A stretch of DNA of 59,984 bases, the filler included, from Hausera hauseri (taxonomy: Eukaryota), in the NCBI GenBank assembly GCA_046269625.1. It is 10 parts of 10 records of this genome, joined end to end, with 100 filler letters (N's around TTAATTAATTAA, not from the genome) between each part and the next. Parts side by side here need not be neighbours in the genome. Positions count along the whole stretch, not along the records: positions 9,882 to 13,846 come from JBJURY010852855.1; 9 more parts are not named here. The stretch is one strand, 5' to 3'. The number at the start of each line of letters is the position of its first letter. The stretch's first letter is position 1. Under the pieces are notes generated by a model. It had not been told where the DNA came from, did no database searches, and was given only the letters and a program-made list of their open reading frames with translations. Both the position numbers and the translations under genes were made by a program. Of this stretch, positions 1 through 36,400 are shown piece by piece.

Positions 1-540
1 AAAAGTGCATTGAATGCTTTTCAAAAAAAAGCGCCAACTCACCGCACGTCAGATCCATCCGGAGATTCTGTCATAGCCAAACATTTCTTTAATTCTTTGA
101 AACGACAGGGTCATATCGTTGGGGTTATTGAATTCGTTGCCACAGGTAGCAGACTCAGAATTTACATACCAAAAGAAACGAACATTTTGACCGTACTATG
201 TGCATGAATTAAATGTCCTCGACCACTGAGACGACTTCCAAACGGTAAAGCAGAACCTACAAATGCAGAAGGAAACTACGCTCGTAAATATACAGAAAAG
301 GTTTCCGAAAAACGTGTAGTAGAGGTTGAAATCGAGAATATGGATAAGGCCTGTAATTTCATCGGATGGCTCTATCTGGGATCACCAGAGGGCAGAGCCA
401 ACCATAATTTGAGTGTACTATTAGTCGAGTCTGAATTGTCCAGAATTCATGTCATTGCCGAAGGGTCAACTCAGTATAAATAGCTGTGTGAAGCCAAAAA
501 CCGGCCGAAAGAACGGAAACTCAATTTACAGACAACTGAA
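1..540 (+). pseudogene. SND1: Tudor-SN (staphylococcal nuclease domain-containing protein 1) fragment, SN4 domain, intronless, with premature stops
   Basis: Frame 1 reads ...VIEFVATGSRLRIYIPKETNILTVLCA*IKCPR...VEVEIENMDKACNFIGWL...NLSVLLVESELSRIH...YK*LCEA, matching the SND1 SN4 pattern (VEYVFSGSRLKLYLPKET...VEVEVESMDKAGNFIGWL...NLSVLLVE); stops at 205-207 and 481-483. Confidence 0.88.
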
Positions 541-879
541 GGCCAGTTGAGTCACCTTGACGAATCAGTGAAACGATTTAGTAATTCGAGTAATCCCATT
601 CGAAAAGCATTTGATACCATGTCGAAACTTCTGAATCGACAAGCCATTCACACAATGTTGTTGATAAACCAAGAAAATGTTACCAAAGCATCAGATGATG
701 CCATAACTAACGAAAGAAAATCAATAATTGACCTTATTAAAACCTATATTGCTGCCATTCTAAATTTACTCCCTTCATATATGAATACATCTGAGATTGT
801 CGATTTACTCTCAATTTCGAAGATTCAAAGTGACGAGGATAGGCGAATCACACCCAATCAGGCTTGGCGACATAAATTA

Positions 880-1505
880 CCTTTGTCGACAACTACATCG
901 TTACCTTTGTAGATTGTATACACGATTTCACATGGGACAACTACCATTGTCATACCGATGTTCCTTAGAACGTTTTTGGGCAAGGTTGTTGTTTTCGGTC
1001 GTCTCTATTATATTTATATGGAGATGTTGGCCATTTCCCGTACAAATTCCATCATTATCTACGCCGGTATAAAGAAAATCGAGGCTGGCAAAAGTTCGGT
1101 TATTACTGTTTCTATTAGCTGCATCAATTTTATTGAATTTGTTACCAGCCCGTTTTGGCAGTATCTCCTGTTCTCTTTGTTTTTATGATTCCATTCGTTT
1201 CCTATTGTCTGAAATTTTGAAATACATCTGGTACCTAGTGAAGATGTTTGCTGGTGATACATGTTGCTGTTATTTCGGCATGATTTCTGACGTCCTTGGA
1301 ATTCTAGATCATTTCAGCAAACCACTTCTTCTTTTCCTTATTTCTCGGATCATAAATTTCCTCTATTCTTTTCCACAGTGTTTACACTTTAGCACTTGCC
1401 CACGACATAGTCTTCCGAGACATCTTGCAACTGTTAATAAAGTTACTCAATCCACAGTGAAATTTAAATTGGCTTCAATGGACAAAATTGGTAAACTATA
1501 CTTTT
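880..1505 (-). pseudogene. Possible degraded rhodopsin-family (peptide) GPCR fragment, TM3-TM6 region
   Basis: Minus strand gives FTVD*VTLLTVARCLG (TM3/ERY-like), IETVITELLPASIFFIPA*IMM (TM5-like) and NIGMTMVVVPCEIVYNL (TM6-like), with stops and frameshifts. Confidence 0.35.
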
Positions 1506-2039: not shown

Positions 2040-4160
2040 ATGTGCTCTCATTCACAATACCTCCACCTACAGCGATTACTTTCTGACTCACAACGTTTTC
2101 ATTTTAGTCGACCTTCCACACATTATGGCCTTACATAACTATCTGTGTATACATATCAATCCTAGAATCCGCAGCGGGATGATTTCTCCATCAACCAGTG
2201 ACATCACCGATAAGGTGACCACAAAACCTAAATCCATTCTTTACTACCTCATATCAAGCCATCCACCTACTTCAACCGATACAAACTCTTCTCACAAAAA
2301 TCATACCAGTACTTCACCACATGGTTCTGAATATTTTATAGACAAAGAGAAGTCTAGCAAAACTTGGCTCCGCTTCCATCAACTCTGGTTACAGTCTAAG
2401 GGTATTACAGACTCGTTATTCAAAGCCCATAATCTACTTTACCTTCTACAAAATTCCATAAAGGCCTCAATCCACAACTTACTGGACATCTTTCAACACT
2501 CTGACATTTATATCCAATTGTTCGATGTTGTGTTAAAACTGACAGAACCACAAATTGACTCTATAATTCAACGCTTCTTTAACGAAAACGCAATGGGGAC
2601 ACAAAAACCTAGTAATTTCCTACGTACCTCGTTTTCTCACTTACGTACTTTAGGCGTCACCAAGGAACAATATCCAGATCTACTTCGACGATATTTCCTT
2701 AATGTTTTACCCATTCAAATTAGGGCTTTACTTACCGTTGTTGGAGATTCTGGCTAAACTGGCAGATAAAGCACACGAAGTCTTACAAATCCATTCACAA
2801 CCCATCATATCATCCGCTATTACGACCGATGACAATCAATGCCATACATCCATCAAACACCAATTGAACCAATTACGTGCCGAAAATGCGGCACTCCAAC
2901 ACACAATCAACACCATCAATGGTAAGCTGAATGACCTTTCTTTACATCGACGGAATGCTCCCTCGCCTCTTCGAACACGTTCTCCTTCCAGAAATTGAAC
3001 ACCGTCGTCAACGCGGTCATTCATATGTTATTACCACAACAGATTTAACAACAAAGCAAATAAATTATGTTTAGGGTGTAGCTATTATTTATCGACTTTA
3101 CACTCTGATAACATAATTTGCATATATCATGCAAAATTCAGACATAATTCACGCAAATGCATTTCAGGTTGCACGTTTAAAAACAAATCCCATCATGCAG
3201 ATGACGAACGCACAACTTTCGTTTCTAACAGTTGCTCAGGTTCCCCGTTTTCAAAAAACTAACTTCGCCGCCAGAGTTTTCGGTAAGCACTGGCGAAAGC
3301 CACTCTTCACTTCCTAATAGCCGAAAAATTTCTTTCGCTGTGTTCACATTAAAAGTCTCCACCATCGCACCGACACCTCAACACATAGATTTCCTTATCG
3401 ATTCAGGCGCAGCGATTTCTTTACTACAGCTCACCTTTCCAATTCAACAGACCGTCGAAAATTAAACCTTTATTTAAAGCTTCCGGACAACCGCTACATG
3501 TTTCCGATAAATGTAGGCTTTCTTTTATCCTTCCGAAATTTACTCAAACGTTCCACTGGACATTTACTGTTGCAAACGTCCAAACAACCATTTTAGGATC
3601 CGATTTTCTTTCGCACTATAACCTGTTTGTCGATTGAAAACAACGCTGCTTAACAAGTGGTCGCAATAAGGAGCGATTCAATCACGACCATACAATTTCG
3701 GCTGTCGTACGGGTGAATGCAACTCGAAAGCCGATATTAAAAATATCTTTTAACAGACCTTTTACTTACAACCATAGCACCTTGTTTTATAAATCACTAA
3801 AGAACAGTGTTACTGCCGATTGGGGTTTGCACATCGACGAAAGTGATTCTGTTACCACTGTCAATTCATTAGACAAAACCACTAGTTAAAATACCATCTT
3901 CAGTGCTACCATTCTGCATCGAATACCACTTCATTCTCGATCAACAAATAACACCCGAATTGCTACTGTTACTAATACAACCAAAGTTACCGGTAAGACT
4001 TCCTCGCTCCCACCAAACTTTTTACAATTACCTGCAAGTCTGCAGCAATTCATCCACGTATCTTGTTCTAGAATTATTCAAAAAGATAGGTCTCTTACAC
4101 AAGCAAATACCACTTTTCATCATATTGTGACACAACATCAAAAACCTATCCGCCAGTAAT
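2040..4160 (+). mobile_element. Degraded CsRn1-clade Ty3/gypsy retrotransposon: Ubl-like leader, gag, protease; breaks off at the start of RT
   Basis: Gag motifs MGTQKPSNFLR, LLRRYFLNVLPIQIRALL, LAKLADK; CHCC knuckle CYYHNRFNNKANKLCLGC (3026-3079); protease FLIDSGAAISLL (3391) and WTFTVANVQTTILGSDFLSHYNLFVD; pre-RT HHIVTQHQKPIRQ* near 4120-4160; homologous to 50650-51388. Confidence 0.85.
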
Positions 4161-9881: not shown

Positions 9882-10845
9882 GCAAAATAGAGTCGAGGTT
9901 TAACTTCTGATTTATCAATCTTCCTCTTGGATCTTGTTAATTCCGTCGTGGATAAGAATATTTCTTTGTAATTTGTTCAAAACACTGTGTGATCACATCT
10001 CCGAGTATCACTTTCCAATTTAAATCTCATTCAATCTTGCGGATTTGCTGAATATACTATGGTAGGAGTCTCGATCATATCCGATACTCGATCTAATCTA
10101 CTTTTGGATATCACCTCCTTATACATTCGCCCTTTCGTTTCGTTAAATTTTCCTACTTTTAATAAAGCTAATTGACACTGATCCCTATCAACTTCGTATG
10201 ACATAATTGATTCACCAGTGTCGCATTCTTTATTGTAATAGTCACATTCAGGGAATTGCATCATCTTTCCTGAAGATAACTCGAAGAGGGCATCATATTC
10301 TCTCGGCTCGATTTGATAATCTTCAATAGCCACTATATTATCTAAAATCTCGCCATTGATATTATAAGACTCATCCTTACAGTATCCCGTCTTATCAACT
10401 ATTCCAGCTACAAAAATCCTTTTGTTGATAATTTTTCCTTTCTGAGCTTTCAGTCTAATATTTTCAATATTAATCTGCTTTGTCATAAAAGACTCTGTGC
10501 ACATTCGTTTGCTTATGGGAAGTAGCTCTAATGCGGTAATTGGTTCGACTATTGCTGAATTTCAATACCAATATCCACAAATGAAATGAAAGTGATTTTT
10601 TCGATCAAAGCATTCTTTCACCTTAGTTTTCACAAACTCTGACTCTTGACAAACATAGTACTCCTTTTCCGATATGGTAGTCAATGAGGCTGGATTGGCA
10701 AATGTGCATGTTTTTAAGTCTAATAAGGAATATATTAGACCTTCCTTAGCTTGACTACAGTCGTAAGCAGTGATTGAAAGTGCTTTTGGAATTAGGCTAA
10801 ATAGAAGTAGTATAGGTATAACTTTAGTTAGCCATGATAAATTGA
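9882..10845 (-). pseudogene. Chuvirus/Jingchuvirales-type class III fusion glycoprotein, N-terminal half, with premature stops, truncated by the contig end
   Basis: One frame: signal-like WLTKVIPILLLFSLIPKALS, then ITAYDCSQ..IYSLLDLKTC..KVKEC..FICGYWY*NSA..MC..GYC..ECDYYNKECD..DQC..RCDHTVF*TNYKEIFL; the AYDC, SLLD-C and CG motifs and Cys spacing resemble chuviral G. Confidence 0.75.
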
Positions 10846-10876
10846 GATCTGTTTGTGGGTTTCGTTGGGTTTCTGC

Positions 10877-12590
10877 TTATTGTGGTGTACGATATTCTAT
10901 TCGTTGTTGTGCAATTGGAGCCGATTCACGTATTGCTGTACAAACTAAACTAGTGATCCATCCACCTCTACATTTTACCCATCCCTCAACATTGGACTTT
11001 AACGCTCTTATAGCAATTTTTATATTTCTCTCTATCTCTTCCCGGTTCGGATTTACACCATTCATCACCATTATCTTATATAAGAGATAGGATATTACTG
11101 TCACAATTTTATTTCGGGATATACCAGTTCCCATCATTCTTGAAAGAATATCCCTTTCCTGTATTTCATTTATCCTCTCATCTGTAGGAATATCCGCAAA
11201 TTGTTCACTAATCTTTGCGACTTCATTCCTTACAGCTTGCATTAGTGAATCCGGTATTTGTAAATTGGTATTAAACTCAACGAATGCATTATGCGTTCTT
11301 GCTAACAAGGTTTGTATTAGTGTTACTAATGATACATTATCTAGGTGGTATTCATCTTCCGTTGTTAGCAATCTTAGAATTATTTCGTCATTTCTGGCTT
11401 TCCTGCCTTTCAACTGATAAAGTTTCGTCGTTCCTTTTGGTCTGCCACGGTTTCTTTTATCCGTTTGCATTTGTTCTGATATAGGTATATTCGCTCCCAT
11501 CTCCACCTGTTAAACTTGATATTGATGTTCTGGTTCTTATACTTCTTTTCGTCTAACATCAGCAATAATTTCATCAATTACGTCTTGTTCAGTCTGTTTA
11601 TAAATAATACACACAGGGTTGTATCGATTTTCCCAGATACCTACTTCATACAAAGTTTCATGATCCAGCAGAGGGCGTCCATAGAAACGCAACTCTATTT
11701 CTCCTCGAGGCTGAATAATTCCATTGATATTATTTTTCAATGTAATTATCGTATCTGATGACTTCATTCTTAGAACGTGGAAATCTTGGTTATACTGTTG
11801 TAGCGTAACCATTACTTCAGGGTTTTCTCCAACTGTCCTCACTCTATCCGCATAACGATAAATTATGTATCGTACAATATCCTGATATGGGCTTGTACCC
11901 GCAGCATACATTAACAGCAAATCCAGTAAATTAGCAAATTGTTGATGGCTGATTGTTGGCGATAGTAGCATAGACAAATCTTGCCTAAACCGAGTGCCGT
12001 CGATCAGTTCTTGGTTGGCATAATTAGATATTTTCCGAACTATTTCGACGCAATCCTGATCTAAAGCCAAAGATGAAGACTCATAACTTGGGGATTTTTC
12101 CTTTATTTTCTTTCTCCTTGTTCTTTTTATCTTTTCTTTAGGTTCACTTTTTTGCTTGACTCACTCTTCTCACTTTCAGAAGGTAAATTGGGTTCCGGAG
12201 TCTTCAGTTCTTCTTGTGTCAGTGGTTTATCCTTTTTCTTGACCCTTTTCTTTTCGATATCCGATTCTGATGTAGGAGTCTTTTTGAGTTTACCAATAGG
12301 AGCCATGACTGAACTTTCGTCCTTCATTTTCTGTCTTTTCTCAGAAATTTGTTGTTCCTTTAATTCCAGGTGCAGCTGTTTTAATTCAGCTATCTTATCT
12401 TCCTCCTCTATTGTATTGGTTTTACTTTCTTTTAATTTAGATCTGATCTTCTGCTGTAACTTTTCAATTGTTTCTTCGGGCTCTGTATCCGTGGTTTGGT
12501 GTTCATTATCCGTATCAGATATATTGCCTACTGTGGTGCCGCGGACTCGTGCGCCTCCATCGGTCCAATTGCAATGCTCAAATTTCTTAG
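10877..12590 (-). pseudogene. Unknown coiled-coil/helical protein in frame with the glycoprotein (gag- or nucleocapsid-like?)
   Basis: ORFs 11537-12070, 10877-11506 and the glycoprotein share one frame, separated by single TAA codons; the upstream K/E-rich coiled coil (12127-12590) is joined by one frameshift. Confidence 0.55.
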
Positions 12591-13445
12591 TCTATTATTG
12601 TTGATTAAATGATTGCAGAAAATGCCGAACAATTGTTGAAAAATGTTGATAAAAACGAGGTCAAAGAAGCGAAATTGAGATGTTGTTTTGAGATTTCATA
12701 AGACCTATCGTCCAATTTATTTCATTTTGACGGACTTTTATTCGGAACCACGTACGTTAGAAATGCCGTAGTACAAAAGTAACATGAAGGGGAACCATAA
12801 TAAATTTTGAAAATGGAATTAAAAGTATTAGAAGTTAATTGGGCATATTTGAAAGTGATGACTAAGCTTAAATTTTGTACAAATTCATATGCAGTACTAA
12901 ACTTTTATCCACTATCTTCGAAGTTTGATATTACAGATTATATTGATGAATATCTTATACTGAGTCTATACCGACATTTTCCACATATAACATATCAGAT
13001 CGCCAGAAGTGCAGCGACTTTACTCCTATGCATGCTAACAAGCAAACTGCTTACGATACGATAATATGCACCTACTACAACATAACTTTGATCCTTGTTG
13101 TCAAAAAGGAAAGAAAGTTGATAATAATTAGAGATCAAACAACTACCTTATATTGACGATTATATTTGGAGAAACGAATTGTGTTGAATTAAACTGTTGA
13201 AAAATATAATCATCCATAATATTCTATTTTACATTGCAGTTTATTACAATTAAAATTGCCAAAATCTAAGACACTGGATTCAAATGAAATTAATTTTATT
13301 ACAACTAATGCACAGCAATTATTGTGCATTACCAAACAAACGAAAACAAATTGCAATGGTATAAACAGTTATGCAGTTAAAATTCAAGTCCAATTAGTCC
13401 GGCAGTGATAAACAGCGATTAGTCAATGAATAATCAATTTGTAAA

Positions 13446-13820
13446 TTGCAAAGGAGAGACAAGTGTGAACCGAGTCATACAGCTCATAAGAAAGTATCTG
13501 TATCACCAATATTTCCATTGATCATTGTATTGGCCATGTGTACCCTGTTCCTCATTTCACAAATTCCCATAACTGTTTACATCATTTTGGAAAATGTGAA
13601 TATTATTCAGATTGACAGCATTGAAATGTATATTTGGATGTGTACGATTTCTCTTTTAGATTATTCAACGAAATTCTATATCTGCACTTTGTTTACTGGT
13701 CATACCAGAAAAATAGCATTCAATATTGTCAGACGATATTTTGGTAAACTGGGAATACGTATTAATGGAGGAAAGGTTGCGACAGTAACGGTACATAGTA
13801 TTTCACTGAATAATGTGTAG
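13446..13820 (+). CDS. Rhodopsin-like peptide GPCR, C-terminal part (TM6-TM7-helix 8); partial gene or last exon
   Basis: IIVLAMCTLFLISQIPITV (FxxxQxP, TM6) and ISLLDYSTKFYICTLF (NxSxNFYIY-like TM7) followed by a basic tail. Confidence 0.65.
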   Translation: MQRRDKCEPSHTAHKKVSVSPIFPLIIVLAMCTLFLISQIPITVYIILENVNIIQIDSIEMYIWMCTISLLDYSTKFYICTLFTGHTRKIAFNIVRRYFGKLGIRINGGKVATVTVHSISLNNV

Positions 13821-13846
13821 TTTTTCAAATCATATAACAATGAGCA

Positions 13847-18959: not shown

Positions 18960-21900
18960 TTTACAATGCCACATATCTTTGAGGTTGTGTGTGGATTTCA
19001 TCTTCACGAATGTGCCTTTTTCATCGAACCAATCGAGGTTTTTCTTCCGCAGCGCAACCTTGGCAATCTGATGTTCCCGGGACTGGATCCTCTTCATCTC
19101 CCTGACGATGTAAGTTTGTTCCCACAACACTCTCATAATCTACAAAGCCTATGTCTTTAGCTAATGTGGCCCTTTGAACTCCCTTAGCCCGCTTCTTTAC
19201 CTAACCACTTACATTGATGGCGTACATTTTTGATCTCAACGCAACGAAACGGGTGGTGATCTGCCCATTCACCTTGTCTTTAAACTTCCCGAGGACCTTC
19301 TTGTTGACGGTTAAGTAATTTGGATGATCCTTCGGATAGTTCGAGGTATCTATATACTGCGCCAATTTTGCAAACTTTCAAAGACATCATCTGTGTGGAT
19401 CTGGTATATGAAACTGTCCGTGTCCATTTACATTAGGTGGAGCTCCTTTAATGTGGGACCATAATATTGTAATGAAAGTCATACGTCAAGGTCTTGGATA
19501 GATCCAATATGGGCATGCCCACATATATAGGCTTGTTAAACTCAAATGATGTCTTGAGCATATGAATGCTCACCAGGTTCTCTGTGTAGATTGTACTGCT
19601 GTGGAAGTTGGGCTTAGCGATAAGTATTTTTGCCCTCTTCCAGTTACATACCAGCTCGATGTTTATCCGGTTCCGGATGTTCTCCATAGTTTTGCCAAAG
19701 ACCGAGTTGTTATGCAGCTTGAATTGGTTCTTTACAAACTCGTTCTTGGCATTGGCCCTTAACTGAGTATTGAGGTCTATGTATGGATTCAGCCATTTGT
19801 ACTGGCTGAACGGCAGGGCCTGATGAATCCTGATTACTCGGAGTCCATTTTAGATGGCCTGTTGGAGATTTATGTAGTGGCCAACATACCTCTCCCTGTT
19901 TTCGAGGTGATATAGCAGCTTCTTATGCTTACCATTTGGCGTCCTCTTGCTCTTCGGGAGAAAAGGCAGCTGCTCATACCTTGTGTGGATGCTATGTGGG
20001 TATTCCACGTCCACCTCCCGTATGTAGCCCATATCTCCATTGGGATCAATACCTTTAGTATCCAAGACATGCGGCTGCTCCTCCCATTGAAAGTTATGAT
20101 AGGGCAATGGGTTGCTCATTGTCCATCCATACAGATTGTTGGAATCCAAGTATGATATATATAAGTACTTCTTGGATGGATCATAATCTACCATGTATTT
20201 TTTGTTGGCCTCGCCGTGCATGTGAATGGCCTGGCAGATTACGCCCTTGATGTCTCTCTCAATCATGAGGGCCACATTGTTATCCTTTAAAATCTGGAGC
20301 CTTATGCCGGTATAGCGCAGCATAGCTGCTCAACTCATTCCTGGAGTTGTAAAGAAATAAACTGGATCAAACTTGTGGCTTTTAAGGGTCACATCCCGGA
20401 AGCTTTAAAAGACATCAGTAAGCAACACCACATTTGTGAGGAGAAAGATATCACTGTATTCCCCTATTGCCCTGCACTGGAAGGTTTCCCATACTCTTTC
20501 GGCGTGCTCATAGTCAGAAACGCTAATATGACTGTATGAAAACCGACTATAGACGTCCGCTTTGTCCGGTAATGCATCTTCATCCAGTGCTCTCCATAAC
20601 GTTATATAGTCATAAAGGAACACTCCTTTCCGCTTCATCAGGTCAGATGTATCCGGGAAGAACCTCTTCGTCTCCTTGAGTTCATCACCTGGATGGTTCT
20701 TCACTAGGCCGTCGAGTGATGAGCTCATGAAGTAAAAGCTATCAATGAAGTAAAGTCTGATGCGGCCCATATGCTTCGTGAAGGTAAATTACTTCTCCTC
20801 ACTATTTGGAATCACATAAATGTTCCACTCAATATTACCCAATTCTCGAACAATGAGGTGGGAATCATATCCACTAAGATTGTGGAATATCACGGGAACA
20901 TATATGCATGTCTTGCAGCGTATGTTGCAATTGTTGTACACTGCGCCTCGGTATATGCTTGTAAAATGGCAGTGATCCTTGACTTTGTGATTGTCCCATG
21001 TGAGTGGCTTTCGGCATAAGTAGCATGTTGATGCATTGCGCCATTCACATTTTTCTTGCTGCGACATCACCATGTAGTCTTTATGTTGCTGCAACATGTT
21101 TTCATGTTTGTGGGCATACTGTTTTAGATGCTGCATAAAATGTGGTGCTGCATTTATACCCCTGTATAGGTAGGGTTCTTTGTCCAGTCCTTTGGCATAG
21201 ATGCAGTATGATGATAACTCATGGTACTGATATGCTGTAGTACTGCTTTGCTGTGGATTGGGACTGCAGCTGTGAACTGGACTGAGCATGGCCTCAAAGT
21301 CACAATATATGGCAATCGGCATCTTCTGTATCTTCTCAAACTCCTTGAATTCCACGTAATCCTCCTGGGGGAATTCTGCTCAGATACAATAGTTTGTATT
21401 GCAGTAGGTATTGTGCTCCACCAACTTTTCTACGGCTGTCTCCATTAAAATGGGTAAAGCCTCTTTCGCATATTTTCAGCCTTGATTTATGCTTGGATAT
21501 TTGCAATCCTATGAGGTGCTCAAAATTCTTGATCCAGAAGAAATTCCTCGTTTCTCCATCATCTAGCAGGAGCAGATTCCTATGATCCTCCAATTCCTCC
21601 TTGCACACATGAAAGGTATAAAATTTGTCCTCCTCCAATCCGAAGATGTTGATGGGAATTTTGTTCACGCTTTCAAATTTCACGACTCCATCTAGGCTCG
21701 GCTGGAATGAAATACAGCTGAAGTCTTATGTGTGCTGCACTTTGTCATATATCCAAACTCGGGAAGCATTATGTTCATCCTGGACTACTTTTGACAAAAT
21801 AGAATACATTAAACACATGCTGTCCTCATTATGGATATTGATGCATGCCTTTTTCTTAATTATTTATTCAGGAAGCGGTATGTAGGACCTACCTCTCATG

Positions 21901-22420
21901 GGAGAATACTTGTGCACATGCACAAGTAACCCCTTTATTGTAGTTAAAGTCCAACCGCTCTTCTTTTCCTGGCATTCCTCGGCTTCGCGGATGAGCCTTG
22001 CATAGTCCTCTGTAATGAAATCCTTAATGTTAAAGGATTTCAGTAGTGCCTTGTTCTTCGTTTTGAAGGCTCTATTATACAGCTCTCTTTTGATATTGGT
22101 GAATGTGGCTTCCAATTTGAAATTCACTTTCAGGGTCTTCAGGTCCAACAAGTTGTCCTGGAGAATTCCTGCTGCCTCCTCCTTTAAATATTCCAGGAAT
22201 TCATGGAGTAATACCTGCCCCACTTCTGCTATGAAGTATCGCCGCACTTTGCTCTTCAATGCAGATACATCAATTGGTCGCTGTCTTTGACTTTTTGTTG
22301 GAGCTGCTATGTCTGATGCGCCTGATGCGCCCCATGCGTCCGATGCGCGTTTTAGTCCCGCATCAGGCTGTACTGAAGGCTGTGGTACTGCAGGCCGTTG
22401 CACTGCAGGTTGTGCAACTG
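18960..22420 (-). pseudogene. Protein-primed family B DNA polymerase (Polinton/Maverick, adintovirus-like), copy A, frameshifted
   Basis: SGWTL..RGRSYIPLP; ExoI IYCDFEA; EndoVII-like CYLC..VKDHCHFTS.YRGA..NNCN; FHNLSGYDSHLI; FIDSFYFMSSSLDGLV; KGVFLYDY; YLDSNNLYG; KLHNNSVFGKTMENIRNR; KPIYVG; MDTDSF; many stops and frameshifts. Confidence 0.92.
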
Positions 22421-22421
22421 G

Positions 22422-23748: not shown

Positions 23749-24303
23749 CAATTACAGACCAGGTTATTCTGTCACCAAACAATGAATTGGGTTTGGTTTA
23801 AAGCCATCCTTTGTTTTAAGATTAATATTTATGTTTTCTTTTTTAGATTGGTAAGTAGTCAGACTCAAATGAACTCGAGCCGGCTTAGCATCGACGAATT
23901 CTTGCAACGGTATGTAACCGTACGCATCCCGAACTAAAAAGCCATCTATCAACAAATCAATACAGAATTACAAGGGCGAAACTTCCTTCAGTACCCGAGA
24001 ATCGACGAAATACTAAACCACTTGAAAGGAACAACTGAAGAAACTATAGCCGTATATCTATACGCTTGGAAAGAGGCTAAAGATGCCAGAGCATACACTT
24101 TGAAACAGATCACCCAACACCAAGCGGATAAGGAACAGAGAATATATGTACATTTGGCCGACGGAGAATTCTATTATCGATTGAAGGACCAAAAATGGGA
24201 TTCGTTTCAAGGTAGACAAAGCCCGTTCAGCACATTTGTATTTAACAGTAGGAATTTCCACAATTGCTAGCTGGAATTCCGTATCGCAGTCTTACCTGTA
24301 AAG

Positions 24304-24945
24304 ATGATGGTCAAGAAAACTGAAGAGGAAACAATGCCCGTCTCATTGCCGCCCCTAGGATTTAGGCAAAGGCCCACTGAAAAAGAACAAGACGAGCATC
24401 TACATTCATTCAGACTAGTAACCGATGACAGGAATATTAGGATTGCCGCAATAAATTATGGAGAAGGAGAAGAAGGGAACTATATCCCAATTGAAATATC
24501 GATACGAGAAGAGAAAGGGGCCAAAATCTATTCAAAGATCATTAACCCAAGAAAGAAGGTACAAGAAACCTATGCCGAAGTGACTGGAATTAGAAGAGAA
24601 CAATTAATCCACGGAAAGGATTCCAAATTAGTGCAAGAGGAAGTAGCACAATATCTGTACGGATACGTCTTAGTGGGGTATCGAGTACAAAGAATGATAA
24701 AGAAATTAAACCTATCAGTAACTCACATAGCCAGAATAAGAGAGATAGAGACTCACCCAACTGTAATGGGACAAATGGAAATCAGGATCAAAGAGAAAAA
24801 GGACCACCTACCACCGACCGTGGAAGGCCGATTTAAGTTAATGGTAGAGGCCATGACTGGAGTGAATATAAAAATAAGCCGGCTGCTGACCGCTAGTCAG
24901 CGATCCCAGTACCTAACAGACATAAATGCCGGATTAAAATGTTAA
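24304..24945 (+). CDS. REX4/ISG20-like DEDDh 3'-5' exonuclease fold, probably catalytically inactive; part of an interrupted accessory ORF starting at ATG 23869
   Basis: EISIREEKGAKIYSKIINP..EVTGIRREQLIHGKDSKLVQEEVAQYLYGYVLVG aligns with the REX4 pattern RVSIVN..G..VYDKYVKP..AVSGIRPENL..G..VQKEVAEMLKGRILVGH; ExoI DCE reads NYG and the ExoII Asp is absent. Confidence 0.72.
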   Translation: MMVKKTEEETMPVSLPPLGFRQRPTEKEQDEHLHSFRLVTDDRNIRIAAINYGEGEEGNYIPIEISIREEKGAKIYSKIINPRKKVQETYAEVTGIRREQLIHGKDSKLVQEEVAQYLYGYVLVGYRVQRMIKKLNLSVTHIARIREIETHPTVMGQMEIRIKEKKDHLPPTVEGRFKLMVEAMTGVNIKISRLLTASQRSQYLTDINAGLKC

Positions 24946-25895
24946 AAGGTAATCCCAGACAGAACCTACGGAGCTTTCCTAAATTCGAAGGAGTTAGTAC
25001 ACGATATAGGAAACATTTCCGTTCATATTCTCCACCAAGGAATGTCGAGATCATGCCAAAGTGGAACTATCAGATAACGATACAAGGGTTAAAACCCGAG
25101 AAAATGGAAGAAAAAATGTCCACGAACGAGAAGCCTAGCACTAATTTTGCAGCCAAGGCAACCGAAAATTGTAGCAAATTTAAGGTACCAGAGATTCCTA
25201 AAAAGCGCATTAAAAAGGAAGAAAAGAACCAAGGCGACAACAAGGAGAAAATGATAAAGAAAAATTTCCGTCTTCGATTATTTATTCAAGAAAAAAATAA
25301 AGGAGAGGAAAAGGGACCGGAGGAAAAACATCATTTGGACAAAAAAGATTCAAGACTTAAGTCAACCGACAAGCCAAGAATACAAGACGAAGGATCAGCG
25401 AAATCAACTGCACAATCCTATATTGAGAAGTCTACAAAGATACCGAACAAACGGAAGGAGCAGATAACGGGAATAAATATATTACGTAAGAAGAACTCTA
25501 TGGATGACATACATTATGCCACTGCGGAGGATTATCCTAGAATGCCAGTAGCGACAGAGTACTACAGTAAACAAAAGATTAAGGAGGCGATGTTTTTCAT
25601 CAGATTAATGCCCGCAAGACAGGTATACGAGAACACTTACGTCTGGGAGAATCCTAAGGTCGGAAAATACATTGCACCGATATTTCAGTCGAAAAGAAAT
25701 GGCAAGTTTCTAGTTCCCGTGGATAAATCTGTAAAATTGCTACTCAAGAAACAATATCACGAATACCGATCGACTGGTGAAGTTCCCGATTTAGATCGAG
25801 ATACTATAAGCGATTGGACTCTAATACCTGTAGGATGCGATCCTAACAAAAGTTCCATAAATCCGAAGCAAAAAAGAATATATGCCTATTTATAG
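24939..25895 (+). CDS. Lys-rich linker plus unknown globular domain, in frame with the downstream RING
   Basis: 318-aa ORF; same frame as 25911-26360, separated by one TAG. Confidence 0.5.
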   Translation: MLKGNPRQNLRSFPKFEGVSTRYRKHFRSYSPPRNVEIMPKWNYQITIQGLKPEKMEEKMSTNEKPSTNFAAKATENCSKFKVPEIPKKRIKKEEKNQGDNKEKMIKKNFRLRLFIQEKNKGEEKGPEEKHHLDKKDSRLKSTDKPRIQDEGSAKSTAQSYIEKSTKIPNKRKEQITGINILRKKNSMDDIHYATAEDYPRMPVATEYYSKQKIKEAMFFIRLMPARQVYENTYVWENPKVGKYIAPIFQSKRNGKFLVPVDKSVKLLLKKQYHEYRSTGEVPDLDRDTISDWTLIPVGCDPNKSSINPKQKRIYAYL

Positions 25896-25910
25896 CAGGA
25901 TAAGGAAGGA

Positions 25911-26360
25911 TTGATAATAGAACCTATCGAGATTATGATAAGGGTTGACTTGGACGACGAAAATTGTGAGAAAGAAAAGAATGAATGCCCGGTATGCGAG
26001 ACAAATTTGAAACAAGGACATGTAGTACTAAATTACCCTGATTGCCGACACAAATATTGCAGAGACTGCTCAGAGAAATGGACATTGGATGATGGAAAAA
26101 CCACATGTCCCGTATGCAGAGCTGAGGCCACCGACTTGAAATACTACTCAAATGGTAGTTATACCAGAGTGGTTAGAATAAAACCCTATCATAGTTACGA
26201 ATTGGAAACAAATCCAAGAGAAACCCAGCCGAGTACCAGTTCTGGACCCAGTTTGAGACAACGTATGGAACTATTACGTTCACCCCATTCTCACGGCACC
26301 TTTCCTGACGCAAAGGGCAATCCGAGAATGCCGCTCAAGGAGGAGAAATGTTGTAAATAG
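25911..26360 (+). CDS. C3HC4 RING finger protein (putative E3 ligase)
   Basis: CPVC-x15-CRH-KYCRDC-SEKW-x8-CPVCR. Confidence 0.85.
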   Translation: MIIEPIEIMIRVDLDDENCEKEKNECPVCETNLKQGHVVLNYPDCRHKYCRDCSEKWTLDDGKTTCPVCRAEATDLKYYSNGSYTRVVRIKPYHSYELETNPRETQPSTSSGPSLRQRMELLRSPHSHGTFPDAKGNPRMPLKEEKCCK

Positions 26361-27986: not shown

Positions 27987-30900
27987 TCCGGAGAAGTATG
28001 GATCCCGGTCGATGAAAACATTCCGCCTAGAACGGAATTGTTAATATTTGCACAGATTTATCAAGACGGCAATATACCAGTATACCTTGAACCAAAAGAA
28101 ACGTTAAACCCGAATATAATATTGAGCAATAAATTAACCCTGGTAGCATTCGGTCGAATACCTGTAAGAATAGTGAACAATGCTCAGACTCCAGTGAAGT
28201 TATATGCTAACACGACTCTAGGACATACTTATAAAGTATCAGCAATAACGGTTGAAGAGAAACCGTATAAGTATGCTGAATTTCCACCACACGTCGATAC
28301 GAAGTTTTCACCAGAAGCTTATTGCCAGTTGTACGAATTGTTATGTCGATATAAATCGATCATTGCGAAAAACGAAGAAGACATAGGCAGAGCAAAAACG
28401 TTAAAATTAACTATACCACTTAAGAAAAAACCTGGTTCCAATGATGAAATCAATCTAGAGGAACAGAAAATGCCAAAATGATATCCGCCGCCGCATTCCC
28501 TAAGGCCGGAAATAACCAAGGAGGTTGAATGTATGTTAAAGGCTGATATAATTCGACAAAGTTTTAGATCTTGGTATTCACCTATTCTAATGGTCAAAAA
28601 GAAAGGTACAACGAAACATCGATTTTGTATCGATTATAGAGCATTAAATACTCTCATGATAAAGGATTCTTTGCCCTTACCATCTGTGAAAGAGGCCCTA
28701 GATAGGCTGTCAGGAGCAAAATGGTTTACCACTCTGGACTTACAATCTGGATATTGGCGAGTAGAAGGTGAAGATGAAGATCGTTACAAAACAATGTTTA
28801 AAACCAGCCATATTTACCAGGATGACAAATAAAATGCTAATAGGACTCAAACATGCATTTGCGTACTTAGATGACGTAACTATCGCATCGAAAGACAAAA
28901 AGGAACATCTGACGGACATTGAGGACACACTTGTGAGATTAGAACATACTGGGTTGAAACTAAACCCGAAGAAATGCAAATGGGCTCAGAATTTCTTATC
29001 CTACCTTGGCCATATAGTTGAAGAGAAAGGATCGAAGCCAGACAAATCATTGTTGAACAAATTTTCAGACTGCATGGAACCCTAGAACCAAAAAAAACAA
29101 AGACATTGGTTAGGCTTATGCAGGTACGCCGCTTACGTACCGAACAACTCAAAAATGAATGCGCCAATATACCGATTATTAAAAAAGGGTACAAAATGGA
29201 GATGCACCGACTTTGAACGAAAGGCGTTCGATGAAGTGAATATACAAATCAGAGAACCAGTACTGAGATACCCTGACTTTAGTTTACCGTTTATTATTAA
29301 AACAGATGCAAGTAAAGAAGGTATCGGATATGAAATGTCACAAAAAAGCGAGGACGAAGAACTCGGACATCCAATAACTTATGGGGGACGTTCCCTAAAG
29401 AAATCTGAGAAAAACTATTCAATGACAGAATTAGAAACGTTAGCAGTAAAAGAAGCCTTGAAACATTTGAACGTCTATGTATATGGAGAGAGGATAATAA
29501 TAGTTACAGACCACAAAGCTGTTACAACTTTAAAGAGACGAGCAAATAACCCTACTCGTAGGTTAAATAGATGGATCGAAGAAATCTCAAGGTATAATAT
29601 TAAATTCAAATATAAGCCTGGTGCGAAGCATGTTGGTGCGGATGCGTTGTCAAGACTGAAGAAAAGAACAAGTGCTATAATGACAATGAAGAAAAACCAG
29701 CTCGAAGAGTTAATAAACCGATAACGAACTTTAGCGTTAGATGAAGCAATTACAATTACGACCGAGCAAAAGAGGGATCAAGTTATCCAACAAATCATTG
29801 AATATGCTGAAGCAAACGTAATGCCAAAATGACACCAATTAATAAAACATTTACAACGACATGGACATAAATATCGTGTCTACGAGAGAAAAAATAATGA
29901 GAAAGTACTGTATTACGAACGAAAAGGAAGGAAGTTAGTATTTATACCCAAAAACTTACGAACAGAGGTTTTAATGGTCGAGCACGATTCATATTTGGCT
30001 TGACACATGTCCTGAAAGAAAACGTTAAATAGGACGCTAAACAAATTCTATTGGCCTAGTACATATATATTGATGTGAAAATTGGGTAAGCGCTTACAAA
30101 GTATATGCAAACAAGCAATGCGGAATTACATAGCAGAGCTGAAGCCGATCACTGTACCAGCCAGGCCGATGCAAGCTATATCAATGAACATCGTAGGACC
30201 GCTACCCACGTCGCATAGAAACAACAGATACATACTAACATACGTCGACCATTTAACTCACTTCGTGAAGTTAGTGGCATTATATGATCGAAAAGCAGAA
30301 GCCTTAACCGAAGCTGTGGTAAGAAAATTTTTTTGTAGATACGGACCTCCATATCAGATACTCACTGGTCAATAGAAAAATTTTACCAGTGAATTATTCG
30401 ATAAGATCACAAAAATATTCAAAATTGAAAGAATGACTACAACAGCCTACCATCCTTAATGTAACAGAATGGTTGAACGAATGAATGCTACCGTTAAACG
30501 GATATTATCAACCGTAGTCGCAAAAGATCAAAAGGATTGGGACAAATTCCTAGAAGGCATGCAATTTTCCATAAATACGACGCCTCATCCCGCGACATAG
30601 TTCACACCATTTTTTATGATGTTTGGACGAGAAGCAATATTACTTACGTTCTTAGGAATGATTCAGTATGAAGTAAACTTCGAAGAGTTAGAACCGAATT
30701 TTGTAGAAGTCCTACAAATTAGATTGCAAAAATGTTGGGATATAGCGAAGATATTATCCCAAGAATATCAAGAAGGATTCAAAAGACAATTTGACCAAAA
30801 GGCAAAACCGCACGATTTAAGAAACGGAGATTGAGTTTACGTGCACTATCACGTAGATAAGAAAGGTACATTGTTAAAACTCACGCGCATTAGAAGAGGA

Positions 30901-31000
30901 CCTTACGAAGTTGTCAGAACAACCCCCACTACCGTTTATGTCAATAAAAATGGAAAGGAAGAGGTCATATCAATACAGCGAGTCGTGAAAACGGAAACAA
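27987..31000 (+). mobile_element. Ty3/gypsy pol pseudogene (RT, RNase H, integrase, GPY/F)
   Basis: SPILMVKKK..RFCIDYRALN, FTTLDLQSGYW, AYLDD, KLNPKKC, YLGH; TDASKEGIG, NYSMTELETLAV, TDHKA, RLNRW, ADALSR; integrase IVGPLP, YVDHLT, TTAYHP, VERMN; GPYEVV; stops and frameshifts. Confidence 0.95.
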
Positions 31001-31099
31001 GGCCAGATAAGCGAAACCAATTTTATTTAAGGGACGTGAAAACGAACCAAAAACCGAATTGCGGAAAAGTCAAAACCTCGTCTATAGTTACCAGGCCCA

Positions 31100-32356
31100 T
31101 ATCGTACATACCGATAGTCTTAGCACTATCACTTATAGGTTCATATATTCCGGAAACCAAGGGTCAAGGAGGATTGATTCAAGGACTAAACAAATGGATG
31201 AAGCATGAATTGATAAGAATAAAAAGGAACGACTTAAGCACCTTAGACTGTTTCAAAGTTCAAAGTAGAGATCAAAGACGAAATTGTGTGCTATTTAAGA
31301 CGGACGGAACCGTTAGAAAATAAGTAAAATATCAAGTAGTTCTATGGAACGCGAATAAACAAGTAACGAGCCATTGTGATCTTCCTTGTGGGTCCCAGAA
31401 GGATGTTGTGTCATAAATTATGGGAACATTTATATCTTCGCAATACGAATGTACTACAAAAACTACGAAAGCACACAAGGAACGATAAGACCGCATGGAA
31501 AATTAGTAATAACCACCAGAGTACGGTTCAATGCAACAGAAATCAGTGGCATAGTACAGTCAACCGATACAATAAAATGGGTGTTGAATGAAAACATAAT
31601 TGTTATTTCAAAAAATAAGTAAAACAAATGTATCCAAATAGATACAAAATGGAAATTGCCAAGCCACCAAGACATCTCAACCCAGTTTACCAAAATAAAA
31701 GAGTTAAGTCCAATTCCCAATTATTGTAGAGTAAAGAACACAGATCTTAGGATCTGTTGTAAAATCTCAAAAGGCTATGAATATAGGATTCATTTTGACC
31801 TTTACGGAACTCAGGAAGATATTATCAGGACAATAGAATCTGGAAAATTGCGATCGAAACGACGACGACGAGACAGACTGTTCCATTAAGCACCACTCTC
31901 ATATTTACTACAACAAAGAAATTATAAAAAGAAAATTACTTAAGATTCCTGTAAAATTTTGGGTACAGAAACATAAAATAGTATTTTCGGTAGAAGAAAA
32001 GCGCCAATATGACGTCGAAATAAATTGCCGTATGATGTATAGACACATAAAAACAACCCTACTGAAATACACATACCACACAGAATGCAACTCATTAATA
32101 TCAAAGACCGACTATATAATACAAATATATGCAAAATACCTACAGAGTCAAACCTTCACAATACAAACTCTCTAGGAAATACAAGTAGCATCACATGCAA
32201 ACAAAGACATGAGACATGATACAACTATAGATATAGTTACTAGAAAACCCAAAGACCTGACTACTTTGCCTATTATAATGATTGCAAACCTGTCAACATT
32301 CGTACTTATAATATGTCTTGAGACTTTTCAATTAGTCACAAAAAATTGTCAGTATA
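31100..32356 (+). pseudogene. Env-like region in frame after integrase: signal-like segment, furin-type sites, Cys-rich domains, C-terminal TM
   Basis: YIPIVLALSLIGSYIPETKG is in the same ORF as GPYEVV; RIKR (31216) and RSKRRRR (31851); TM PIIMIANLSTFVLIICLETF. Confidence 0.6.
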
Positions 32357-33432: not shown

Positions 33433-36400
33433 TCAGTACGAGAATGCAGAGACAAGATATTCATCGGTCTTATCGGAATGGAGCATATGATGTCTGATCA
33501 ACGGCAACGAATCGACGCGGTCCCCGGAAAACGTCTTAATAGAACTTACCGAATCCAGTGTTCTATTGGACTGGGATTGATCGGTGGCATTACTGTTGAG
33601 ATACTGCAGAGCTTTGACGATTACTTTCAACGTATCTTTGCTCGAGCTTGGGCATGTGTCGAGAACTTGAATAATTTTCTCTAAAGACTCGCTATGTACA
33701 CTTTGTAAATTGCGATCCATTTTCTTCAGAACTTCAATGCAAAGCAAATTGAGATCGTTAGTGTAGTTTTCATTAAGATTAGTACAGGTGAACGGACTCT
33801 CATCTGTCGAGAATGTTGTCGTTGTATTGGTCGTTTCATTGTAGGGAATTAGAGGTTCACTCACCCAACGTTTCTCCACATGTTCATATCCTGTGAAATT
33901 ATCACCAGCCGACGTTGTTTGAACATACGTTGAACTCTTACTCAGCACACTTGTTCGTGATGCGTTACTCAACACTGTCATTACAGATGTGGGACAGCGG
34001 CAGGTGGACACGGATTTGTCTGACTCATCTAACGGACTTGTTGCAATTAACGGTGGTTTATGTTTGGCAGAACTTTTGCATTTCTTAATCAGACCCATAA
34101 TTCGACCTTTTAATTCCATTAGGAACACAGCCCGCTGATCGTTTTGTTTAGTTCGTTGGTGATTGTCGTTTGATGATTTGCGATGCTTGAATGATTTGAA
34201 CAATCTTCCTAATCGGCTTTTCTTTTTTGGCAATCGTTTTAGTGAAATCGGCAGCTGGACCGTGGCTTTCTCGGGTGCCTCAAGAACAATTCGGTGGGGT
34301 CGTGAGAAGCAGAAAGAATTGTCGTTTTGAGTTTGAATCGTTGCTACTGCCTCCATACTGTTTGAGAATTCTTGCAACTGGCAATTTTCGAATTGATCAA
34401 ATAGCAACGGGAGCAGTCGGATCAGCCCGTGTTTTACTTGGCGAGCTTGAGAATCGGTGAGGAATAAAATTCCATATTTGCTAAGTGCATACTGTTTGTT
34501 TTTGACTGGACAACCATATGGGAATTCCGATAGGGGTATGATCTTCACCATAAGGTGCTCTGCTTGTTTGTTGGATGCTGAATTGTTAAGGCAATTGTTT
34601 CCGTGGTTTTCTATGAATATGGGCATGTTCTGAGTAGACTCAGAAATTGGAGAACATCGTTGGGAAAAAAATCCTTGATTGTTCTTTGATTGCCATTTTG
34701 ACGATTTGCTCCTTACTCTATGCAATGATTCGGTGAATGGATTCGAGATAGATGGTCTTGTATCCATTGATGAATCGATTTTCCTAGTTTCTCTATCCTT
34801 ACTAGCGGAAAGTCGTATATCATTTTCTGCTTCATTGAATTCTAGTTCATCGTCTCTCTTAGACAAAAACACTATGTCATTTACTTCGTCATCTTGTCTC
34901 TTATCTGCTGCTTTTTCTTCAACTTTGTCAGAGTGGGAAGCTAACCCCAAACTCTGTCGTTTCACAGAAGTAACATAAGCATCCATATCCGACGGTGTTC
35001 GGTAGTTTCTTCGTAATTCTGATTCAGTTTGATCAGCAGTACGAACTTTAACCTTTTTACTAGACTTTCTGGAAGATCCGCTTTTGCTAGAATGAATTTT
35101 CACAGAACAGGGTTCCTTTTCTTTGGATGTATTACTTATGATTGCACTTTCGGCTTTTGGAATATCATCTTCAAAACCATCAGAAGCATTACTTACGAAC
35201 GATTCGGTATTTCTTGGTATTACTGAAAACTTCCTTCGTCTATCAATAAAGCTTTTATTATGCGGCTTCTTCGGATTTTTCACCGCTCCGGATTGTAATG
35301 AAAACGTGCCAACTGGGTCCGCTATATCATCTTGGTTATCGTCAAGATCGATTAAGTTTTGACTGCCACTTACACTTCTTACTGATCTGCTTTCTTGGAT
35401 TTTATGTTGACTCTTTCTACCCTCCGATAGGGAATGACGATCTTTCACAGGTGGGACAGAACTGCGTTCATTGGGCAAATCAAACGGACTAGGACCTGCT
35501 TGGTAGGTTAAATCCTTCATTATTAGGCTGGCTCTGTTATCGGCAGTTGTTCGTGAAGTAACAGATGGATGTTTAGTATCATCAAATACATTCAGACCGA
35601 TCATTTGTGGCTCCTGTGGAATACTTTTTCTACTTTCATGAACCGATCCGCGGGGTTCTTCTTCTAAAAGAAAATTATGTAGTTCGGGCCCGTTTGTCCT
35701 CATGCTACCCACGTTTTTAGTTTCATTGATTGATTTTCTACTTTCTTCCACAAGAAACTGATCTAATCCCTGCTCGTTAGTTCTTATGCTGGTAACGTTT
35801 ATAATTTCATTGATTGATTGCCTTTGTTCTCCTGGTACAAACGGATCTGGTTCAAACCCGCTCGGTCTTAAACTACCCATTTTTCTTAGTTCGTCCATCG
35901 ACTTTCTAGTTTCTTCGGAAATTAATTGATCTGACCCACGCCCACTAGTTCGTATACTACCCATTTTTCTTAGTTCATCCAGTGATTTTCGAGATTCCTG
36001 TGAAATCAATTGATCCAATGCTTGAGCACTAGTTCTCACACTGCCCCCTGGTCTCGTTTCGTCTATAACAACTGGTTCTAATCCATACCCGCTAGTTCTT
36101 GTACTACTCGATTTTCGTTCTTCTGGGGCGAGATTCTGGAGCTGATCAAATTCGATTTGCCTACTTTGCCTCACTTTACTTTCAGCAATTGAATGTCGAA
36201 CGTCTTGTGATGTTTCTCTTGCTAAACGACTTATCTTATTCGCAATAGAACGCTGGTCACTTTGCCGCACATCGCCAATTCGACTGTTGAGAATCGATTG
36301 TTTTTCGTAAGCATTTTGGTCTTCTGACGCGATAATATTATGCCTATCTAATTCGACTTTTCTTTGACTCATTTTACTTTCAACTGTTGAATGTCGAATG

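Follow-up and report, generated by a model that had tools for sequence, protein, structure and literature searches.

Results

The window fragment and its intact copies

We analysed a stretch of 59,984 nucleotides from the Hausera hauseri assembly GCA_046269625.1 (hereafter the window), which consists of small contigs strung together with N spacers between them, and followed up a minus-strand coding remnant on its 3,965-bp contig JBJURY010852855.1 (C852855; window 9882-13846). The remnant is very probably a decayed internal fragment of a Ty3/Gypsy element with the order Gag-Env-Pol. Taking all the evidence together, the best explanation, which we consider very likely, is a fragment of a high-copy long terminal repeat (LTR) element that is enveloped, retrovirus-like and a compact relative of the planarian element Burro. 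An earlier note, made from the sequence alone, had instead described a chuvirus-type glycoprotein at the C-terminal end of a polyprotein with an unknown N-terminal half, derived from an undescribed virus or a non-autonomous element.

When the glycoprotein and Bcl-2-like pieces were used as queries against the assembly, they gave 5,123 and 3,297 first-look candidates, respectively; 150 of each were scored, all with E < 1e-75. Long unbroken stretches occur in several copies. Among 18 contigs picked for long frames or length, C22230 has a frame of 3,763 codons, C775424 one of 2,699 that is open at both ends, and C766539 one of 1,995, beyond which come a frameshift and another long frame. Copies 74-90% identical to the window copy begin with Gag and run in frame into protease (PR), reverse transcriptase (RT), RNase H and integrase (IN). 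The full order in the open reading frame (ORF) is Gag, helical domain, ubiquitin-like domain (Ubl), AT-hook, Bcl-2-like domain, signal stretch, Env, transmembrane segment (TM), PR, RT, RNase H, IN, a second predicted membrane protein, a cupin-like domain and an ISG20-like domain (Table 1). The catalytic motifs DTG, YVDD and D-D-E are all present in Pol. A spacer of ~150 residues between PR and RT weakly matches the distant relative P0007 (see below); it had no match at E 1 in Pfam, which detected no dUTPase-like region. A CCHC Gag followed by PR-RT-RNase H-IN, LTRs of the form TG...CA, a tRNA primer site and a polypurine tract together mark the family as Ty3/Gypsy, a retroelement in place of the undescribed virus that had been proposed. 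With Pol following Env in the same ORF, the element does not qualify as non-autonomous, and the glycoprotein is not C-terminal, as ~2,250 further residues follow it in unbroken copies.

On the window contig, the minus-strand frame extends over 12160-9882, up to the end of the contig and the N spacer that follows, and contains six in-frame stops that are not conserved among other copies. The single frame reported from about 12150 thus held up; its stops are indeed isolated, but the one at 11512 had been overlooked among the five listed. A further 114 homologous codons at 12531-12196 lie in a different frame, so that the window copy also carries a frameshift. The RGRPKG motif, the hydrophobic signal-like stretch and the glycoprotein motifs AYDC..SLLDLKTC..CG were all recovered in frame, and RT, integrase and RdRp were indeed absent upstream within this contig. 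The N-terminal part, previously taken as a helical region of more than 500 residues, has ~435 codons in frame, is not wholly helical and contains the Ubl and Bcl-2-like domains; Pfam gave weak ubiquitin, Bcl-2 (E 1.4e-3) and Monjiviricetes_fusion matches on the window pieces.

Compared with C22230, the window copy showed 74% nucleotide identity across 9884-12528, where the alignment stops. The Gag capsid, the zinc knuckle and the 5′ LTR are missing from the contig. An unrelated repeat lies upstream, and among 39 further candidates that were scored, not one spans the junction of the element with it, which indicates that the loss of Gag is copy-specific damage. Pol is lacking on the contig because it lies downstream of Env, past the contig end. 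These results bear on the alternative that the fragment is an endogenised chuvirus-like fusion of nucleoprotein and glycoprotein, or an enveloped element devoid of Pol. Such an origin would fit a contig without Pol and Gag capsid and an Env that matches the Monjiviricetes fusion family, but close copies begin with Gag and continue into Pol in one frame, the 5′ loss is an interruption by another repeat, and the 3′ loss is the contig end; we therefore regard it as extremely improbable.

Junctions were surveyed with one entry per contig among the top-hit contigs. Of 30 contigs that span the Bcl-2/signal/Env junction, 23 were open, six had stops (two of them at one shared position) and one had a frameshift; the in-frame fusion of the glycoprotein to an upstream polyprotein was thereby borne out, with no conserved stop between the two. 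The Env/PR junction was open in five of ten top-hit contigs, or in 8/14 once the contigs chosen for long frames were added, the breaks falling at differing places, and the junction of IN with the second signal was open in all three contigs. A programmed frameshift in the charged linker, where both the window copy and C766539 shift, was considered and rejected, as eight of the ten contigs spanning it are open.

Every domain tested was under purifying selection. Median pairwise ratios of nonsynonymous to synonymous substitution (dN/dS) were 0.040 for the Bcl-2-like domain, 0.047 for PR, 0.052-0.058 for Env, 0.053 for the signal stretch, 0.10 for the helical domain, 0.105 for Ubl, 0.13-0.20 for the tail domains and 0.136 for RT (six pairs only), from non-independent pairs with dS 0.2-2 and dS near saturation. 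Constraint on the Bcl-2-like domain equals that on the protease, and the domain thus is not passenger DNA. In sequencing run X1, contigs identical to the C22230 interior reached depths of 629-1,041, compared with 6-7 for the adjoining 5′ pieces; the high interior depth, which is no copy number, hints at a recent burst of near-identical copies.

Table 1 Features of the decayed copy (window positions) and of the intact copy C22230 (ORF residues).
Feature	Position	Strand	Basis or remark
Window: six stops of the decayed copy	9977..11539 (TAA 11539, TAA 11512, TAA 10879, TGA 10564, TGA 10033, TGA 9979)	-	
Window: charged K/E-rich linker (after the Gag zinc knuckle in intact copies)	12196..12531	-	tblastn, 75% identity to C22230 ORF residues 295-408; out of frame with the remaining fragment
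Window: small helical domain before Ubl	11819..12061	-	70% identity to C22230 residues 455-535
Window: ubiquitin-like domain, no C-terminal di-glycine	11582..11818	-	Pfam ubiquitin E 1.5e-4, under cut-off
Window: AT-hook-like motif RGRPKG	11432..11449	-	sequence
Window: Bcl-2-like domain, nearest BOK	10955..11350	-	Pfam Bcl-2 E 8e-4
Window: internal hydrophobic stretch, predicted Env signal sequence / C-terminal anchor of the Gag-cargo part	10772..10855	-	hydropathy
Window: first ~295 residues of class III fusion glycoprotein (Env), cut by contig end	9884..10768	-	80% identity to C22230 residues 882-1176
Window: unrelated repeat where element homology stops	12529..12698		other contigs match at 87-89%
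C22230: Gag	Ty3_capsid 144-190 (weak, E 0.005); zf-CCHC 266-280		Pfam
C22230: cargo	helical domain 455-535; ubiquitin-like 536-612; Bcl-2-like 690-822		charged linker ahead; RGRP between Ubl and Bcl-2-like
C22230: hydrophobic stretch	855-877		hydropathy peak
C22230: Env	864-1506; TM segments 1424-1473		Pfam PF24664, 286 bits, cut-off 27
C22230: Pol	RVP 1592-1688; RVT_1 1960-2118; RT_RNaseH 2207-2311; IN zinc finger 2421-2479; rve 2496-2593 (IN extends further)		Pfam
C22230: tail	2nd hydrophobic stretch 2782-2803; ~330-residue ectodomain; TM 3133-3164; 3rd hydrophobic stretch 3257-3278; cupin-like beta domain; ISG20-like domain		

LTRs and signals for retrotransposition

Whole LTRs were recovered with lengths of 642-807 bp (15 LTRs), besides one of 630 bp. 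Of the 15, 14 start with TG and all end with CA, with a purine tract ahead. All 18 positions of the primer site (18/18) are complementary to a tRNA-Met(CAT) gene of the assembly; a tRNA pattern derived from C22230, in which this site is worn, gave no match. Gag begins ~150-170 bp past the primer site and the ORF (11.3 kb) terminates at the start of the 3′ LTR, from which we infer a whole element of about 13 kb. One solo LTR (L138), in AT-rich DNA, has the 4-bp sequence TTAT on both sides. On its 5′ side, C22230 is flanked by sequence other than a typical LTR of this family. At seven loci, an LTR, primer site and gag are joined head to tail; tandem arrays were not accepted as the reading of these joins, since short-read assembly can collapse two identical LTRs.

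Separately, of 15 LTRs that otherwise diverge from one another (L053/L067, L106, L107, L112, L116, L118, L120, L124, L126, L129, L130, L134, L143, L146 and L151; compared without a shuffle control), 14 have a splice-donor-like GT(A/G/T)AG at LTR position 286-354, ~70-105 bp past a TATA-like box, and this motif may give rise to spliced mRNAs. Past the 3′ LTR of C766539, L067:1253-1390 holds a second copy of the last ~46 codons of the ORF. A GC-rich repeat at L050:1-400, whose summed depth in run X1 is very high, is unrelated to the LTR of the element.

Env is a predicted class III fusogen

The PF24664 match of Env covers profile positions 5-636 of 653, and Env has 16 cysteines together with a signal stretch and a C-terminal TM by hydropathy. 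Its Atlas neighbours are gp64, rhabdovirus G and gB; PDB sequences gave no match, and no basic furin-type site was seen in Env. The full-length profile match, signal, cysteines and C-terminal TM point to a class III fusogen, and this part of the earlier assignment stands for the intact copy as a Monjiviricetes-type, gB-like protein. Its chuvirus-type label does not: the nearest sequences are Envs of other retroelements (33-37% identity), with no named chuvirus G among the matches, and neither a chuviral N or L neighbour nor an absence of retroelement Pol, as expected of an endogenous chuvirus, was found, Gag and cargo lying upstream and Pol downstream. The suggested fusion of Gag or nucleoprotein to glycoprotein was right as to Gag, which forms the N-terminus of intact copies, and wrong as to a viral nucleoprotein. 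Likewise, the proposed search for intact copies, flanking LTRs or an L gene yielded unbroken ORFs and LTRs, with Pol and Gag cargo in place of a chuviral L.

BEL/Pao elements are marked by Pao-type protease and Gag families and by an Env after integrase. Here, Pfam returned RVP, RVT_1, RT_RNaseH and Integrase_H2C2, a Ty3/Gypsy set without Pao families, and Env precedes Pol; the BEL/Pao context raised earlier is thus not that of this element. Chuvirus-derived glycoproteins in arthropod BEL/Pao and gypsy elements belong to the same class III family, PF24664 (PMC13524379), but this Env, unlike those, sits in frame between Gag cargo and a Ty3/Gypsy Pol. Statements taken from PMC13524379, PMC6431247, PMC8532177, PMC5408684 and bioRxiv 2025.07.01.662465 refer, here and below, to the parts of those papers that were available to us.

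Cargo between Gag and Env

The Ubl gave weak PDB-sequence matches to the RAD23A UBL, and the polyubiquitin-like proteins P0004 and P0005 were returned by profile search. RGRPKG, which we take to be an AT-hook, is invariant in 11/11 aligned copies, and RGRP also occurs in the relative P0003. For the helical domain, comparison with structures (VIA, residues 1-80) gave Z 6.5-8.0 to HEAT/helical repeats and TFIIS-N (TND)/LW/IBD, not above background; a HEAT-like or TFIIS-N-like bundle is a weak lead from this modelling.

A sister subfamily (L177, L179, L188, L193 and L196; 37-47% identity) has the same Ubl-Bcl-2-signal-Env order. Its Bcl-2 domain aligns at 40-47%, and some of its copies exceed the curated Pfam cut-off (L177, 34 bits). 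A joint Bcl-2 profile had BOK as its best PDB match (E 0.006), with 17 of 20 rows from the Bcl-2 family, and a BH2-like GGW is kept in the domain. NWGR is the canonical BH1 motif of pro-survival Bcl-2 proteins; this mark of the BH3-binding type is absent, the position reading SRNK here, TREK, TWEK or THEK in the sister subfamily and TWGK in BOK. Foldseek on the model of the Ubl/Bcl-2 region returned nothing at E <= 0.001, and the ESM Atlas held no usable match for the Bcl-2-like domain. Sequence comparison nevertheless suggests that the cargo domain would adopt a Bcl-2 fold; that it acts in cell death is an even call.

A predicted membrane protein and a nuclease-like domain follow integrase

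Neither the second ectodomain nor the cupin-like domain matched a Pfam family. The ISG20-like domain gave a profile match to ISG20 (E 1.3e-7), and its model (pLDDT 77) retrieved ISG20L2 (E 1.2e-6) and ISG20 (E 2e-5) in Foldseek; the RNase_T profile scored in one of 20 tail copies. Aligned in a by-eye register, the first catalytic Asp is replaced by Asn, the Glu by Ala, Ile or Val and the last Asp by Lys or Arg in all 20 tail copies, and the third catalytic Asp is kept in two of the 20. The frame stays open, with a stop in only one of 30 contigs. The residue changes suggest that this domain is likely an inactive nuclease, and it likely serves as a non-catalytic RNA-binding or decoy module.

A post-integrase membrane protein with an ISG20-like domain was found in no paper within our literature search (Grohme 2018, Jurka 2007, Sacco 2022, Repbase and figures lay outside it). 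The bdelloid LTR elements Juno and Vesta carry a DEDDy exonuclease as ORF3 and likewise have a DEDD-superfamily domain downstream of pol; in these elements, however, the ORFs are separate and the RNase D-like DEDDy domain retains its catalytic residues, whereas here an ISG20-like domain that has lost its acids lies in frame behind membrane segments (PMC5408684).

Two other places in the window show related arrangements. The tail of another element at 23938-26360 (+) has an ISG20-like domain that scores 37 bits with the tail profile and likewise carries Asn as its first catalytic residue; a RING finger follows. At 27987-32356 (+), a decayed Gypsy pol (RT, RNase H and IN) precedes a signal-like stretch and a region containing cysteines, which makes it another family with a post-integrase membrane protein.

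Distant relatives

Searching 1.84 billion representatives with a profile gave four matching proteins, P0002 (79% identical), P0003, P0004 and P0005. P0003 has the layout Gag-helical-Ubl-RGRP-Bcl-2-like and scores 33 bits with the Bcl-2 profile. Env searches added P0006, P0007 and P0008 at 33-37% identity, all of them unnamed proteins. P0007 lies on the metagenome contig L197, where Gag-Ubl-Env-Pol-signal-TM form one frame of 3,181 residues; this long ORF ends at L197:9952-9960 with TGA and then CGG, UGA-C being a leaky read-through context, and an in-frame ORF of 607 codons holds cupin-like and nuclease-like domains. The primer site of L197, presumably Trp-like, differs from that of the window element. 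The Bcl-2 region, compared directly with P0008 by BLAST, found nothing, and P0007 and P0008 show by eye only a BH2-like GG. The layout is kept in P0007/L197, P0006 and P0003. Relatives accounted for 2/355 stretches in metagenome contigs and for 0/79 pattern stretches in IMG/VR viral contigs.

Comparison with Burro and other Gag-Env-Pol elements

Burro/GYPSM1 encodes one polyprotein of 4,873 residues comprising Gag, MATH, Ubi/SUMO-like, BCL2-like, Env, PR, dUTPase-like, RT, RNase H, IN, BIR and ankyrin, with Env in frame between gag and pol, and occurs in Schmidtea mediterranea and Dugesia tigrina (PMC6431247); BURRO1 is transcribed and PIWI-controlled in planarians (PMC8532177). The present element shares with it the single polyprotein, the N-terminal CCHC Gag, a Ubl followed by a BCL2-like domain, the in-frame Env before PR-RT-RNase H-IN, thousands of copies and a likely planarian host. 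The N-terminal half that the earlier note called unknown is thus cargo, Ubl and Bcl-2-like, between Gag and Env, in a layout already in print for Burro (PMC6431247).

The two elements differ in size (3,763 residues and an inferred ~13 kb here, compared with 4,873-5,140 residues and >30 kb, internal part up to 25 kb, for Burro) and in the number of zinc knuckles (one, compared with two or three). The MATH, BIR, ankyrin and Smc cargo of Burro had no Pfam match at E 0.1, whether the ORF was scanned whole or in pieces, and the ~1,000 residues past integrase (membrane protein, cupin-like and ISG20-like domains) go unmentioned in the available account of Burro in PMC6431247. Lacking the giant size and MATH, BIR and ankyrin, the element was filed as a compact Burro-like relative and not as Burro itself.

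Gag-Env-Pol elements with a gB-type Env are known from Nematoda, Bryozoa and Platyhelminthes, six of them from Schmidtea (Smed_errantivirus_1-6); the present element resembles these errantiviruses in its Ty3/gypsy Pol, its gB-type Env before Pol and its multicopy state (PMC13524379). The motifs YQES, (R/K)EC, EL(R/E/K)(E/K), C.TG.(S/A) and TNY.G are common to this Env and the six Schmidtea Env rows of that paper, compared by eye. Its flatworm elements come from Macrostomum, Prostheceraeus and Schmidtea only, and no tRNA primer is given for the Schmidtea ones; in the main text as available, 'exonuclease' and 'polyprotein' do not occur and there is no Bcl-2 passage. Overall, we hold kinship with Burro to be probable.

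Host in a mixed assembly

The assembly is mixed, containing at least seven animal COX1 types in addition to bacterial ones, some of which we take to be fish, mollusc-like and arthropod-like; neighbouring contigs of the window therefore need not share one organism. Among seven COX1 frames, only L099 supported a table 9 reading (AAA at Asn-type columns 2/2; ATA at Ile/Val columns 7/9). In the 14-kb contig that matches it, the gene order includes cox2-nad3-nad2 and nad6-nad5, and nad4L overlaps nad4 by 32 bp. The near-complete table-9 mitogenome C722101 (L199, L200) reads nad6-nad5-cob-(gap, likely rRNAs)-cox3-atp6-nad1-cox2-nad3-nad2-nad4L-nad4-cox1, in which the separation of cob from nad4L-nad4 is unlike what we take to be the usual triclad order.

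The block cox2-nad3-nad2 has been called Tricladida-specific (PMC7706869), and the 32-bp nad4L/nad4 overlap is reported for Tricladida and Prolecithophora (bioRxiv 2025.07.01.662465). Over four runs, the mitogenome had depths of 64-75, ~5, not covered and not covered, and the element 629-1,041, ~30, 5-9 and ~5; the other DNA runs hold the same sequence at far lower depth, maybe through cross-contamination, and were not counted as independent. No RNA set was listed among the 10 runs. We consider a triclad host likely, and the earlier guess of a non-arthropod host was probably right.

These observations also address the alternative that a non-triclad animal hosts a Gag-Env-Pol Gypsy element whose Ubl and Bcl-2 cargo was acquired separately from that of Burro. 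In its favour, elements of the Gag-Env-Pol type do not form a single clade (PMC13524379), Burro's MATH, BIR, ankyrin and giant size are absent, and other animals appear to be represented among the COX1 contigs. However, the order Ubl-Bcl-2-Env-PR is the same as in Burro, Env motifs are common to the Schmidtea elements, and the depth of the triclad-type mitogenome co-varies with that of the element; independent gain accordingly seems improbable to us.

Elsewhere in the window, two related decayed repeats at 19123-22421 (-) and 56162-59330 (+), 71-89% alike, have weak Endonuclease_7 matches and may, as we assume, encode a Polinton-like polymerase; a Polinton/Maverick fusogen, an idea taken from neighbouring contigs, was dropped on finding Pol and LTRs. 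An unbroken ORF of 4,138 codons at 33433-45849 (-) contains 21-residue Cys/Pro repeats and Ser/Arg-rich repeats without a Pfam match, and a divergent PDS5 gene lies at 47989-50120 (+).

Discussion

We propose that a single mRNA of this compact Burro-like element would be translated into a single polyprotein threaded through the endoplasmic reticulum (ER) membrane. The Gag-helical-Ubl-AT-hook-Bcl-2-like part would stay cytosolic, and the first hydrophobic stretch would translocate Env and, after cleavage by signal peptidase, remain as a C-terminal anchor, at the position where cellular Bcl-2 proteins carry their tail anchor. Retained in this way, the anchor would hold the Gag-cargo precursor on the Env-bearing membrane as a built-in substitute for a matrix domain. 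The Env TM would bring the chain back across the membrane, placing PR-RT-RNase H-IN in the cytosol, where the element protease would separate them, and the second signal and TM would put another ectodomain on the membrane. Particles would then bud with Env and pass from cell to cell, with tRNA-Met priming reverse transcription ahead of integration, while the Bcl-2-like domain would likely dampen or redirect host cell death. The third hydrophobic stretch, if a signal, would send the nuclease-like domain and basic tail into the ER lumen, which this mechanism leaves unaccounted for.

Extracellular spread is, in our judgement, modestly favoured. The same element might transpose only within cells, with Env and cargo localising assembly on the ER or keeping the host cell alive. 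Pointing in that direction are the lack of relatives in IMG/VR viral contigs, an Env without a basic furin-type site and the fused 1:1 stoichiometry; yet Env is full-length with its cysteines and TM retained, purifying selection acts on it as on the protease, and conservation of a furin site is not universal among gB-type Envs (PMC13524379). Purely intracellular transposition remains a minority view on this evidence.

Several points weigh against our interpretation as a whole. Both whole LTRs never occur on one single contig, and C22230, with its low-depth 5′ 1.2 kb and worn primer site, may be a mosaic into which the assembly merged near-identical copies. The Bcl-2 and Ubl scores of the window subfamily lie under the Pfam cut-offs, AlphaFold modelling of the Ubl/Bcl-2 region from 11 close copies was of low confidence (pLDDT 40), and the Bcl-2 profile gives no score for P0006, P0007 or P0008. 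P0006 has a signal stretch and no visible Bcl-2 domain, so that the anchor need not derive from Bcl-2. The membrane topology is read from hydropathy only, the Env comparison with the Schmidtea rows was made by eye, and the mixed assembly renders the link of the element to its host indirect. Finally, a Gag:Env:Pol ratio of 1:1:1 is odd for a retroelement and is not explained, although splicing may alter it.

A further-reaching and, at present, unlikely interpretation is a planarian lineage of infectious retroviruses, independent of the vertebrate ones, with a flavivirus- or alphavirus-like polyprotein. Here, a BOK-derived domain would hold Gag on the ER and its tail would double as the Env signal, and the second surface protein after integrase would be an attachment factor beside the class III fusogen, by analogy with gD/G in herpes- and paramyxoviruses. 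The dead ISG20-like domain, Ubl and the possible TFIIS-N-like and AT-hook module would counter host defence and steer integration.

The core layout is already published for Burro, including an Env behind an unfamiliar N-terminal half, to which the compact form and the tail add modestly. What is new here is an element about half the size of Burro, without MATH, BIR or ankyrin, with a BOK-like domain under strong selection and a post-integrase tail. Stripped of those modules and of giant size, the minimal core is Gag-helical-Ubl-AT-hook-Bcl-2-like-Env-Pol, and a 13-kb element is more tractable than one of 30 kb. Three questions are thereby sharpened: how workable Gag:Env:Pol ratios and topology arise from a single frame, of what use a BOK-like domain is to a retroelement in a stem-cell-rich animal, and which roles the post-integrase membrane protein and the pseudo-nuclease play. 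Furthermore, the Env relatives at 33-37% identity in metagenome contigs show this design to be old and not confined to Schmidtea.

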